Below are positions 42,070 through 58,481 of a DNA stretch of 64,000 nt, piece by piece (positions within the stretch are counted from its first letter, which is position 1; each line of letters begins with the position of its first letter). The DNA is taken from assembly GCA_964016885.1 (NCBI GenBank), contig OZ024743.1, forward strand, positions 6,696,001 to 6,760,000, in the 5' to 3' direction. Below the pieces are notes generated by a model that saw only the letters and a list, made by a program, of their open reading frames with translations, did not search any database and was not told where the DNA came from. Source of the DNA: Eledone cirrhosa (taxonomy: Eukaryota). The translations under genes were made by a program, and so were the position numbers.

Positions 42070-42734
42070 TCAAACTGTTTGGCCTTGGGTCTAAATTAAA
42101 GGTTCTCAACGGGGGGCATATGCCCTCCCCCCCCCCGGCGTTTCGTTGCTCCAGGGGGTGGGTTATGCTGTGAGGGGGCGTTCGGGGGGGGGGCGTTGTG
42201 CAGTAAGGGGGCGTTTGAAACTTTGAGGGCGCTAGAAGCCCCTTTAGTTTGGTAAGTTTGATAAGTCATATTTGTACGTCTATTAGACAGTCATTGATTT
42301 GAATGAAGAAAACGAAGAAAATAAATAAAAGAAGCTGGTCAACGAATTCCCTAGGGAGACAAAAGAAAATCAAAAGAAATCAAAGAGAATGAAAGTAAGG
42401 ACTCCTTCAACAGAAATGAAAAGAAGAAGCAATGGTGGTGAACATACACACACACACATATATACACATACATACACACACACACATATATACACATACA
42501 TACACACACACACATATATTCACACACAGGTCGGCATTAGTGTTTGATGAGGTTGAGAACCTGGTCAGCTTTCAGCCAGAAGTGTGGTATTTAATCTCCC
42601 TAGGTAATAAAATCTGGCGACAAAAATGTTCTCCTTACCAAAAAAAGAAGACATCGATCATATCAACATCCTTACACACTTAAATATAAATGTATGTATA
42701 TATGTATGTATATATATATATATATATATATACG

Positions 42735-42922
42735 TTATTCCGGGTTGAATCGAAGGTAACCACAGTAAGTAAGGTACTCAATACATAGCAGAGTATAACA
42801 GTTTTAATATAGATGAGATTCTACAGGACTAGAACTGTTTCATTCATTAGAAATCAGATTCCTGATGATTTCTAATGAATGAAACAGTTCTAGTCCTGTA
42901 TAATCTCATCTATATTAAAACT
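42735..42922. repeat. Palindromic stub in (TA)n with a hammerhead-like core
   Basis: Arms 42800-42856/42866-42922 with one mismatch. CTGATGA-T-TTC-TAAT-GAA-T-GAAAC at 42862-42885. Confidence 0.75.
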
Positions 42923-43083
42923 ATATATATATATATATATATATATATGTATGTATATATATATATATATATATATATATATATATATATATATATATAT
43001 ATATATATTTATATATAAATCTACATATATCACCCAATATAGAGAGAAATTACATGAATCAAAGGTCAGTTTAAATCATTTAT

Positions 43084-43132
43084 TTGCTTACAATTGTTTC
43101 CTCCAAACCTAGGTTTGGATTCTTCGGAGCAA
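43084..43132 (-). ncRNA. Minimal type-I hammerhead ribozyme, U4C core variant
   Basis: Minus strand TTGCT-CCGAAGA-ATCCAAACCTAGGTTTGGAG-GAAAC-AATT-GTA-AGCAA; mirror of 46826-46874. Confidence 0.8.
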
Positions 43133-55336: not shown

Positions 55337-56074
55337 GAAAAGAGCAACATTATTCACTGACCCGTTCATCACCGTGATCGGCTTGACCTCGATACTTCAG
55401 CTCATTCTTACTAACATTCGGTTTGCTTGACCCCATCATATCTTCATTGCATTTCCACATCATTTATTCTATAACTAGGTTGTTGCTATTCCTATATAAA
55501 CTGACTGTTTATACTACGATCAAGTCTTGTTATAGCCTTGGGTTTAAGGAAATGCTTTTGTTGTCTTCAACAGTCATCCATTATAATTGCAGCACCATTA
55601 CAAGAATATCACAGTGATGCATTAAGGTAAGGGCGATAATTTGAGTAACTCTGACTAATAAGTAATGTCTTAACTTAGTATTATCGCGTCTTATCACTAC
55701 GTGCTTAATTGATGAATTCCATTTCAAAATAGCACATTACTAGTCATTCTTGCATTAAGTTCTCTTGAACTCGTTGCCTCGTTGATCCTTTATTGAGTCT
55801 GCCACCTTAATTCCCTCAAGCTAAGTTATTACTATTCCTACATGAAAGACTGGTTAATCTTCATATATAACTTGTCTCGACTTGGTTAATTAATGACAGT
55901 ATTTGTCTTTTTCATTGCAGTTTTGTTTATTACAAAGTGTTATTCCAGAACATTACTTGAAACTTTATCATACTGGAACAGGACTCATTATAGTAAGTTC
56001 CTTATACATAATTTTATAGGCTTATATAGGCAAATCTTTGCGTAACTTTACCAAACACATTCGCTAAACAGAAA

Positions 56075-57796
56075 ATGGCCTCAGCAATGAAGAAAAAATG
56101 CAGGCAGTACAGCGTTGATTACTTACGGTTCGGATTCATCCCATCGCCGTCGAACCACCTGTCACCCATGTGTTTAATTTGCAAGGAGTCCTTTTCGAAT
56201 GAGGCGATGAAGCCATCGCGTTTGAGTAGACACCTGGAGGTGAGGCACCCCGATAAGCGATATAAAGATTTAGCATACTTTCAGTCTCTTAGGGACCAAT
56301 TCCAGAAAACAACACTAATTTCTTCTGCCTTTTCAAAAGTTGAAGCTTCAAATGTTGATGGACTTGTCGCATCTTACAATATTGCCAACATAATCGCAAA
56401 GTGTGGCAAGCCCCATTCCTTGGATGAAACATTGGTAGCCCCTGTCATCTCAGAAGTTCTTTCAACAGTACTACGTCAGAACCCGTTAAAGACCTTGAAA
56501 TGTATTCCGTTGAGTAACGACTCAATAAAGAGACGCTTCGACGAAATGGCGGAAAAATTATGCAACATCTTTAAATCGACACAATTTGCTTTGCAACTTG
56601 ATGAAAGCACACTTTCCGGGAATCAGTCCTTACTACTGGGATACGTGCGATTTTTCCACCAAAACGAAATGCACGAGGAGCTTCTCTTCACTCTGAATCT
56701 AGCCACAGATACTAAAGGTGCCACGATCTTTGAATCTGTCAAGGGATACCTCGAAGAAAAAGAGATACCTCTTAACAATATTGTATCATGTGCTACGGAC
56801 GGCGCAAGAGCAATGGTCGGCCAACATAAGGGTTTCGTCTCTCTTCTGACGAGGGAAAATCCATCTGTATTTGCTGTTCATTGTGTCATTCATCGACAAC
56901 ACTTGGCTGCGAAGAAACTCAGCGAGCCGCTGAGCAAGTCTTTGCAGGTAGCCATTGATGTCATCAATTATATCAAACGCCATGCCCTCAATGAACGAAT
57001 TTTCCGGCAACTGTGCGAAGATAATGACGAAGAATTCGTCGAGTTGCTCCTTCATACTGAAGTGAGGTGGCTTTCAAAGGGCAAGTGCCTTACTCGCTTC
57101 TTTGAACTGTTCGACTCTATCATTGAGTTTCTGCGAGGACGCAACACAGAACTGTACAAGAAAACCCTCGATGTGAGGCAAGACTGCGCCTACCTCACCA
57201 ACATCGTCGACAAATGCAATAGTCTCATTATGGTTTTGCAGGGGGAGAAGATCACCTTGTTTAAAGCAAGGAATGCTGTGAAAATATTCCTGGCCAAATT
57301 GAAAGTCATCGAAAGGAATCTTTGTCGACGGGAATTCTATAATTTTCATAGTGTCGCCAATGTTCAAAACATTGTGAGCGATGACCAACTGCAAATTTAC
57401 ACCACGCACCTCTGTGCACTACAAGACAACATGAGAGAACGGTTTGTCGACCTTTTGCAGATAGACATCCCAATGTGGATAGCAGATCCCTTCATAGCCA
57501 ACGTCGACGATTTCGACGTTAAATTTCAGGAAGAATTAATTGAACTTCAGACAGATGACATTATCAAAATAAAATTTTCCAAAATAGGTGAACCCCTTTT
57601 TTGGATGCAAGAGGAAATTCAGCGTCGATTTCCACTCCTACATGCAGAGGCTAAGAGATTTGCTTTGCCTTTTCCTAGCTCATACTTAGTTGAGAGGGGG
57701 TTTGGTGTTGTTTCCAGACTGCATAGTAAGGCTCGCAACCGCTACAATGTGATTGCACGTGGAGATCTCCGACTACAGCTCACGTCAAAGAGTTAG
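56075..57796 (+). CDS. hAT/Buster transposase (ZBED5/ZBED8/SCAND3-like), 573 aa, C-terminus frameshifted
   Basis: RQYSVDYLRFGF, BED finger CLIC...MKPSRLSRHLEVRH, catalytic LQLDEST, ATDGARAM and SYLVERGF, HCVIHR, EVRWLSKG. The native end VKELAKLHEAQGSH* continues in another frame to TGA at 57826-57828. Confidence 0.93.
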   Translation: MASAMKKKCRQYSVDYLRFGFIPSPSNHLSPMCLICKESFSNEAMKPSRLSRHLEVRHPDKRYKDLAYFQSLRDQFQKTTLISSAFSKVEASNVDGLVASYNIANIIAKCGKPHSLDETLVAPVISEVLSTVLRQNPLKTLKCIPLSNDSIKRRFDEMAEKLCNIFKSTQFALQLDESTLSGNQSLLLGYVRFFHQNEMHEELLFTLNLATDTKGATIFESVKGYLEEKEIPLNNIVSCATDGARAMVGQHKGFVSLLTRENPSVFAVHCVIHRQHLAAKKLSEPLSKSLQVAIDVINYIKRHALNERIFRQLCEDNDEEFVELLLHTEVRWLSKGKCLTRFFELFDSIIEFLRGRNTELYKKTLDVRQDCAYLTNIVDKCNSLIMVLQGEKITLFKARNAVKIFLAKLKVIERNLCRREFYNFHSVANVQNIVSDDQLQIYTTHLCALQDNMRERFVDLLQIDIPMWIADPFIANVDDFDVKFQEELIELQTDDIIKIKFSKIGEPLFWMQEEIQRRFPLLHAEAKRFALPFPSSYLVERGFGVVSRLHSKARNRYNVIARGDLRLQLTSKS

Positions 57797-58481
57797 CTAA
57801 ACTCCATGAAGCTCAAGGGTCCCATTGATACGAGGTTAAAGTAAGTCGATTTTTTATTTGTAGTTGCAGTCTGACTGGACTGGAAACCATCTACCACAAT
57901 TCACTTACTCATTTGTTGTATATATTTTACCGTTTACTAATGAATATACCCTCTTACGTGGTCATGAAAACCCTCTTCCGTGGTCTCTAAGCTCACAAAG
58001 CGGAGGGGAGATCAAGTAAGATATCAACATTTATTCTGTCCGTTTCATTAAAGGGAAAATTGGAAAGCTTTGAAATAATACAATTGCCACTTTCTTCCAG
58101 ATAAGAGCACTCTTTGGCTAGACAGAGTTGCTCTTGTATAAATGTTCAAAATAGCTGGTATCGTCTGGTGGTAATATAACAAATTCAACTGGTCCTTATT
58201 CATAAAAAAGAACATTTATGTTCTTTTTTTTTTATTTATATACTTCCTTTCAAGGAATGTATTTATACTCTCAGCTGCCTGCAATGGTATCTTTGGAATA
58301 TCGTTAATCAATTTTTTAGTAATCTACTGATATCAAAATCAGTAGTATATTGAAACATGGAAAAAAAAGGGTAGGGAAGGTGGGAGCGTTTCGTGATTTC
58401 GAAGGGAAAGGGGGGGGGGGCGTTTGGCCGAAATGGGTTGAGAACCTTTGGTCTAAATCATAAACTATTAATTAATATTAT

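Follow-up and report, generated by a model that had tools for sequence, protein, structure and literature searches.

We analysed a window of 64,000 nucleotides of the Eledone cirrhosa genome (assembly GCA_964016885.1, contig OZ024743.1, positions 6,696,001 to 6,760,000 of the forward strand), in which a hAT transposon of the Buster family interrupts the tail of a short interspersed nuclear element (SINE). The insertion measures 16,354 bp from one terminal inverted repeat (TIR) to the other. It contains a Buster transposase gene, the remains of a second hAT element (hAT-B) with nested repeats, and two Penelope-like elements (PLEs) together with smaller repeats (Table 1). With high confidence, we interpret it as one copy of a multi-copy composite Buster of about 7.3 kb that carries the older hAT-B, and whose simple-repeat tracts at this locus were probably entered later by the PLEs and the hammerhead-bearing repeats.

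The Buster insertion and its target site

The left TIR, TAAAGGTTCTCAAC, pairs with a partner 16 kb downstream at 13 of 14 bases, and an identical 8-bp target-site duplication (TSD), GTCTAAAT, lies at both ends. Once rejoined, the target site corresponds to SINE tails that stand uninterrupted at other loci, with 53 junction-crossing local BLAST hits at a loose threshold (E ≤ 10), the best of which has an E-value of 2e-6 (locus L166). The original prediction, made from the window alone, had proposed the distant TIR pair, the restoration of a SINE tail by joining the flanks, and a single insertion event. All three were confirmed here, and the TIRs, the exact TSD and the interrupted SINE tail identify the whole unit as one Buster insertion.

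Among the intact left ends listed for the family, the first base of the TIR is always T, making this a family trait. The right TIR begins with C, and this asymmetry is a point of difference from TcBuster, AnBT and their relatives. At position 42097 itself, assembled family copies have T and most public reads and contigs have C; the latter probably derive from related Buster families. A short match to the right TIR also occurs at 42545-42553, inside the 5' region of the passenger, and recurs with one change in a free hAT-B element (L229, see below); it is probably a chance match or an older relic.

By similarity and alignment, the Buster open reading frame (ORF) encodes a Buster transposase. 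At E ≤ 1e-30, 575 of 7,999 scored candidates are homologous to it, its named top matches are SCAND3/ZBED5/ZBED8-like proteins at 45-56% identity, and the D, D, CxxH, RW and E motifs are all in place in the alignment. At Pfam cut-offs no domain was named in any of five window ORFs, with no reverse transcriptase (RT) or GIY-YIG match, and a sequence search against solved structures yielded no match for the transposase. The enzyme had been described as almost intact. This is true of its DDE, CxxH and RW motifs, but compared with family copy E18 it has lost four residues through a 12-bp in-frame deletion near 56556, and its normal C-terminus through a 16-bp frameshifting deletion near 57781.

Table 1. 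Features of the Buster insertion, in window coordinates
Feature	Position	Strand	Basis or remark
Left TSD copy, in SINE tail	42089..42096		Sequence
Buster left end	42097..42307	+	TIR 42097-42110, GC-rich subterminal repeats; unmatched in free hAT-B donors
Captured hAT-B, with SINE, MITE, microsatellites and locus-specific inserts	42308..55336	+	Homologous from 42310 on to L228 and L229, both free donors
Short fold-back element in (TA)n, high-copy family, locus-specific	42733..42925	+	Hammerhead-like core at 42862
Penelope-like element 1, Hydra-type, 5'-truncated, locus-specific	43031..47015	-	Inverted arms ~43040-43890 and 46050-46918
SINE-tail-like short fragment in minisatellite, outside shared core	47198..47255	+	Copy comparison
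Compound AT/AC minisatellite of shared core; main landing site in other copies	47260..47560		Copy comparison
SINE-like passenger, in core and free donor L229	47680..47925	+	Mean 2.2% from 12 young Buster copies, 8.3% from L229
hAT-type MITE passenger, in core and donors L229 and L230	47965..48150	+	Label from the element's ends
Penelope-like element 2, Hydra-type, very young, locus-specific	48305..52444		Inverted arms 48416-49997 and 50841-52444
Type I hammerhead motif, predicted, right arm of Penelope-like element 2	52283..52355	+	Descriptor; mirror copy ~48505-48577, minus
Locus-specific repeat with variant hammerhead-like core	52490..53020	-	Core near 52575-52660
Fold-back of high-copy (TA)n-inserting family, locus-specific	53035..53345		Sequence comparison
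hAT-B transposase remnant, with hAT-B right TIR ending at 55336	54179..55336	+	About residues 401-792 of P0121
Buster body and right end	55337..58450	+	TIR 58437-58450; sequence
Buster transposase ORF, frameshift near C-terminus	56075..57796	+	Homology and motif alignment
Right TSD copy	58451..58458		Sequence

A 7.3-kb core shared across the genome

Searches of the same 3.0-Gb genome, with the left end and with the rightmost 3.1 kb as queries, returned 917 and 1,708 first-look candidates, respectively, which are not copy numbers; in each genome search the best 40 or so of 750-5,920 candidates were scored. The best matches were assembled into a family set of 65 regions, comprising the window and 64 others, a sample biased toward window-like copies. 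Both ends, with TSDs no more than two bases apart, are present in 27 of the 65 regions (the TSD being perfect in 20 of these), and the two-ended copies span 2,135 to 45,229 bp. The remaining 38 regions are cut by the fetched length, rearranged, or have no recognisable end; for E13, E15 and E18, no left end was found within about 40 kb. The TSDs of the family fit the pattern nnnTAnnn, with T at position 4 in 43 of 43 left ends and A at position 5 in 42 of 43. This agrees with the 8-bp duplication with a central TA named in the original prediction, and with the Buster signature as described in the available part of PMC3517528.

All sufficiently complete copies share the same block order, namely left arm, microsatellites, minisatellite, SINE, miniature inverted-repeat transposable element (MITE), microsatellites, hAT remnant and Buster gene. 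This order is kept in copies on many contigs with different TSDs, and in the least-invaded copies the core amounts to about 7.3 kb (7,327 bp in E11 and 7,351 bp in E17). Short derivatives of 2.1-2.9 kb with perfect TSDs also contain the SINE and the MITE. In a tree of 31 transposase regions, the branching is star-like and copies differ on average by 3.7% in pairwise comparison; younger copies group near 2% and older ones near 3-4%. The nearest copy to the window is E17 (G000:C4, ~4.00-4.01 Mb), at a distance of 1.59% (95% confidence interval (CI) 1.14-2.16; support 0.977).

The passenger between the Buster left end and the Buster gene is itself a hAT. Its transposase remnant, which bears stops, frameshifts and two deletions, is 78% identical to the 792-amino-acid hAT protein P0121 and only 22-26% identical to the Buster enzyme. 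P0121 has DUF4371 and hATC domains and may be of the Tip100/Zaphod type. A search with P0121 led to free full-length donors, and many of the Buster-borne matches begin at residue 401. Two of these donors, L228 and L229, are bounded by TIRs of their own and by TSD-like flanks of 8 bp that agree at 6 of 8 and 7 of 8 positions, and they retain the N-terminal part of the ORF that Buster-borne hAT-B has lost. Their homology to the window runs from 42310 to the 3' end of the passenger, as far as 55336 in L228 and 55277 in L229. The Buster-borne copy is internally deleted and lacks its own left TIR and about 170-200 bp with it; without this TIR and the first 400 codons, it would not be autonomous.

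The junctions of this passenger are the same from copy to copy, on the left in 48 matches listed and on the right in 28, as is the junction of the 1.2-kb deletion in the hAT-B ORF in the copies listed; together, these identities point to a single capture. Furthermore, all 29 other best left-end loci continue into hAT-B sequence, so that one passenger with one set of junctions recurs in many independent insertions, which is what defines a composite unit. L229 already holds the SINE and the MITE at the same places, together with microsatellites, and L228 has neither SINE nor MITE; the SINE label is one we presume. Passenger blocks differ by 2.2-4.0% from young Buster copies and by 5.3-11% from the donors, and older copies have about 210 bp more at the MITE. 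Given the shared junctions, the shared deletion and the presence of the SINE and MITE in L229, the decayed passengers (hAT remnant, SINE and MITE) are, on sequence comparison, to be regarded as true cargo amplified by Buster. The earlier suggestion that they had ridden through previous rounds of transposition is thereby borne out by dozens of copies with the same order and junctions and different TSDs.

Locus-specific inserts

Of the 16.35 kb, about 9.2 kb is locus-specific, all of it within microsatellite or minisatellite tracts. This portion comprises two Penelope-like insertions with inverted arms (Penelope 1 and Penelope 2), two fold-backs, a 530-bp repeat and the short SINE-tail-like fragment. 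The core blocks are collinear with E17 and with a free donor across all of these inserts; E17 contains none of them and has inserts of its own. The search for copies that share the interior at different TSDs, proposed in the original prediction, was therefore positive for the 7.3-kb core but negative for the Penelopes, hammerheads and hairpins. No Buster core lies within 1.5 kb of any of 29 Penelope 1 relatives or 28 Penelope 2 relatives, and no second locus runs from the insert at 42733 or at 53035 into the core among about 40 scored candidates each. The relatives of the repeat at 52490-53020 form a tandem array of 485-bp units in another copy.

The Penelope 1 ORF (44616-45881) covers the end of the RT and the GIY-YIG domain, and Penelope 2 has two ORFs, at 49472-50992 (minus) and 50827-51366 (plus). 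Read from the translations, the ORFs of both elements show the motifs of the Hydra clade: a C-terminal GIY-YIG, a preceding CxCX5C, and CxxC and CxH close to the terminus. According to PMC8557442, PLEs of this clade use (TA)n as insertion sites, and inverted arms are given as the usual Penelope insertion form in the available part of the same paper. The window elements resemble these PLEs in their C-terminal motifs, (TA)n insertion, inverted 5'-truncated arms and, for element 2, a predicted hammerhead motif. They differ in that both are 5'-truncated copies and that Penelope 1 showed no canonical hammerhead core, nor did its relatives have one in common.

The two Penelopes also differ in their distances. 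Penelope 2 is 0.15-0.44% from 28 other matches, with its own arms 0.44% apart (95% CI 0.18-0.91), and is thus clearly younger than the Buster. Penelope 1 is 1.63-6.2% from 29 relatives, with arms 1.54% apart (95% CI 0.82-2.61). The comparison of passenger and Buster divergence called for in the original prediction thus gave a divided answer: hAT-B, SINE and MITE are older, as it had supposed, but Penelope 2 is younger and Penelope 1 stands at the same distance as the Buster sister.

Hammerhead motifs

A canonical type I hammerhead descriptor passes once in each arm of Penelope 2, at 48570 (minus) and 52290 (plus); the same descriptor gave 1 match in 30 shuffled-sequence controls. In the hammerhead-like sequence at 42862, stem II is mismatched; this core fails the descriptor, as does the variant core near 52620 (minus). 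Rfam, at its E-value threshold, named no hammerhead in the whole window or in two sub-regions, returning only miRNA-hairpin and similar chance matches, and the single-strand minimum-free-energy fold of the Penelope 2 motif does not adopt the hammerhead shape. The descriptor found nothing in the E11 core, and nothing between the left arm and the SINE in 44 copies; in E7, a hammerhead-like core can be recognised by eye in this interval.

Inserts in other Buster copies

Apparently independent invasion of the tracts is common in the family. Between the left arm and the SINE, 38 of the 44 copies with both anchors have inserts of their own of at least 120 bp, and eight contain relatives of the Penelope ORFs. 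Copies spanning 17-45 kb keep their TSDs, yet their interiors are unrelated. Only one locus, L161, matches a window insert at both edges, and there the element sits in a different microsatellite.

One pair of copies departs from this pattern. E7 and E18 share a 548-bp insert derived from a high-copy tandem repeat that inserts into (TA)n; its 5' truncation and flank are the same in both copies and recur in no other of 30 family matches. Their cores are sisters (support 0.985) with 13 shared non-majority sites, four of them exclusive, and their TSD-side sequences differ and their right flanks are unrelated. The two inserts are 3.1% apart and 2.4% from L307, and hence are not mutual nearest relatives. 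This is likely one case of a retroelement-like insert carried by Buster. No ribozyme match was obtained for the 548-bp family with Rfam or the descriptor. Separately, a Buster copy near G000:C2:215.0 Mb adjoins the 548-bp element, and loci L306-L335 hold a high-copy repeat of about 615 bp in (TA)n, with partial tandems and a Penelope-like form, in which neither an ORF link nor a recognised ribozyme was found.

Proposed assembly of the composite and alternative explanations

These data can be arranged in four steps. First, a SINE, a MITE and microsatellites would have gathered in a hAT-B copy, a combination present in L229 and presumably the earliest stage. Second, such a copy would have become flanked, once and before amplification, by a Buster left end on one side and the Buster gene on the other, with loss of the hAT-B left TIR and 1.2 kb of its ORF; the junctions are shared among the copies, and the capture route is presumed. 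Third, Buster transposase moved the composite and its short deletion derivatives to nnnTAnnn sites in at least two waves, as the TSDs and the tree show. Fourth, the (TA)n, (TATG)n and (GATA)n tracts of each copy would have been hit independently by repeat-targeting retroelements, raising spans to as much as 45 kb. The inserts do differ between copies, and the targeting is suggested by the known behaviour of the Hydra clade. An insert landing in a still-mobile copy could ride along, with E7/E18 as the one likely case.

Several observations weigh against this account. None of 30 left-end loci and none of 30 transposase loci is a passenger-free Buster, and no TSD frames the passenger, for which reasons the capture step is one that we infer. 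At the depth of the genome searches, a rare sibling with the same inserts could escape. The arm distance of Penelope 1 and the distance to its nearest relative equal that between the window Buster and its sister, so that this element may predate the last jump. Finally, the insert common to E7 and E18 runs counter to strictly independent landings.

The alternative that fares best, which we nevertheless regard as improbable, is that Penelope 1, perhaps with the small hammerhead-like fold-backs, was already in the parent, that an intermediate of 11-12 kb jumped, and that only Penelope 2 arrived later. An age indistinguishable from that of the Buster insertion would fit such a history, cut-and-paste transposition can leave no sibling behind, and E7 and E18 do share a truncated insert at sister cores with unrelated right flanks. 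However, no copy has any window insert at the same site, the match in L161 lying in another microsatellite. Buster efficiency in HeLa cells falls by about 90% as cargo grows from 1.6 to 8.5 kb, according to the available part of PMC12637253. Moreover, E7 and E18 do not hold mutually closest inserts, and gene conversion could also cause an insert to be shared.

Far less probable is a jump of the full 16.4 kb in one piece, with both Penelopes, the hammerheads and the hairpins aboard. The perfect TSD and the TIRs around the full span, with a nearly whole transposase between them, would suit it; against this stand the Penelope 2 distances, well below the Buster-sister distance, and the 17-45-kb copies that keep TSDs around unrelated interiors. 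The giant mobile hAT of the original prediction gives way to a shared mobile unit of about 7.3 kb, and the Penelope ORFs, hammerheads and long hairpins that it was thought to ferry are locus-specific and absent from E17, with Penelope 2 clearly younger. The locus-specific parts show the pattern named in that prediction for ordinary nesting, an interior unique to the locus and passengers younger than the Buster, save Penelope 1 in its age. It is scarcely credible that the assembly is at fault or that two unrelated ends were paired by chance. Inverted and simple repeats abound in the interior, and no spanning read or contig was found, the public short-read contigs and RAD reads including none across the left junction; but the core is collinear with the 7.35-kb sister and a free donor, the TSD copies are identical, and joining the flanks restores the SINE tail.

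Comparison with known systems

A composite Buster with fixed dead cargo, enlarged at this locus by ordinary later nesting, reveals no new mechanism. The element resembles the Buster family (TcBuster, AnBT) in its single-ORF transposase of about 590 amino acids related to SCAND3/ZBED5/ZBED8, its 14-bp TIRs, its nnnTAnnn TSDs and its internal-deletion derivatives. Unlike these, its shared form is about 7.3 kb long, because about 4 kb of another hAT lies upstream of the Buster ORF. TcBuster, AnBT and relatives are 2.5-3.0 kb long (PMC12637253, PMC3517528) and hATs 2.5-5 kb (PMC3942097), in the available parts of these papers. With about 90% of activity lost between 1.6 and 8.5 kb of cargo, 7 kb is plausible, and 16 kb costly though not impossible. 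A review of giant eukaryotic transposons (PMC6431247) has, in its available part, no hAT entry and reports a drop in efficiency above about 6 kb; the mobile size of about 7 kb found here is near the natural limit of 6-7 kb discussed there.

As in the cargo-carrying Pack-MULEs and Teratorn (PMC6431247, available part), foreign sequence is moved, here a transposon with nested repeats; further comparators, again from available parts, are the 14-kb ToxhAT (PMC12506042) and the transposable elements that ride Starships (PMC13004909). Unlike those systems, the cargo consists of dead mobile DNA and not of host or viral genes, and the larger spans come from later nesting. hAT-B likewise agrees with DUF4371/hATC hAT transposases (P0121) in its identity and in having free donors with short TIRs and 8-bp TSD-like flanks, but the Buster-borne copy is without its left TIR and first 400 codons. 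In the literature searched, we found no report of a Buster carrying another hAT, which is weak evidence of absence since curated repeat libraries lay outside the search; the available part of an octopus repeat-annotation paper (PMC13282606) mentions neither Buster nor nesting.

The composite represents a natural Buster that thrives at a length two to three times that of its relatives, its fixed cargo being a dead transposon. Its copies amount to a panel of identical, dated microsatellite targets, on which one could measure how often Penelope-like, Tx1-like and other repeat-targeting elements insert and which sites they choose. They also urge caution, as a span of 16-45 kb can be bounded by intact TIRs and TSDs without a giant unit having moved. 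A wider role is possible, though doubtful: the family could act as a mobile landing pad that scattered hundreds of identical microsatellite cassettes, which were colonised by repeat-targeting retroelements; some of these, among them ribozyme-bearing Penelopes such as Penelope 1, would have been re-mobilised while the family was active, in jumps of more than 10 kb.

Other repeat-targeting elements and rearranged copies

Further inserts that recur in several copies were considered as cargo and rejected where they were full-length members of a target-specific family or differed in truncation; for these apparently shared inserts, we infer independent origins. An element of about 600 bp in (TATG)n is present in E5, E9, E10, E12 and E17, which do not group in the core tree, and is reversed in E8, E18 and E19. 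A 4.3-kb LINE-like (long interspersed nuclear element-like) unit in E5 and E12 was rejected because its 5' end is inverted in E12 only, and LINE-like elements in (GATA)n were rejected because their truncations differ. The 4.3-kb unit follows the (TATG)n element in E5 (L067-L069) and E12 (L084-L085), the inverted part in E12 being the 5' 280 bp; partly homologous to the 600-bp element, it may be its partner. The (GATA)n-inserted elements, which we take to resemble Tx1-like elements, occur repeatedly just after the MITE with varied truncations (L162, L178, L181, L186, L191, L199, L226 and L229). Within the window but outside the Buster, positions 10142-11170 hold a direct repeat and a copy of the same (TATG)n-inserting element.

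The 45-kb copy at G000:C4:249.59-249.64 Mb (L082-L086) has an intact TSD and contains an array of about 30 units of the ~600-bp (TATG)n-inserting element. It also holds a two-armed array whose 485-bp unit includes a variant hammerhead-like core and is related to the window repeat at 52490-53020. Among the rearranged copies, L163 has two left arms face to face, L167 has a duplicated left end, and L170 lies directly behind the right end of another copy, with an 8-mer common to both. Further transposase matches begin at residue 238-239 in many loci (e.g. G000:C14:1138762), which suggests another amplified deletion derivative.

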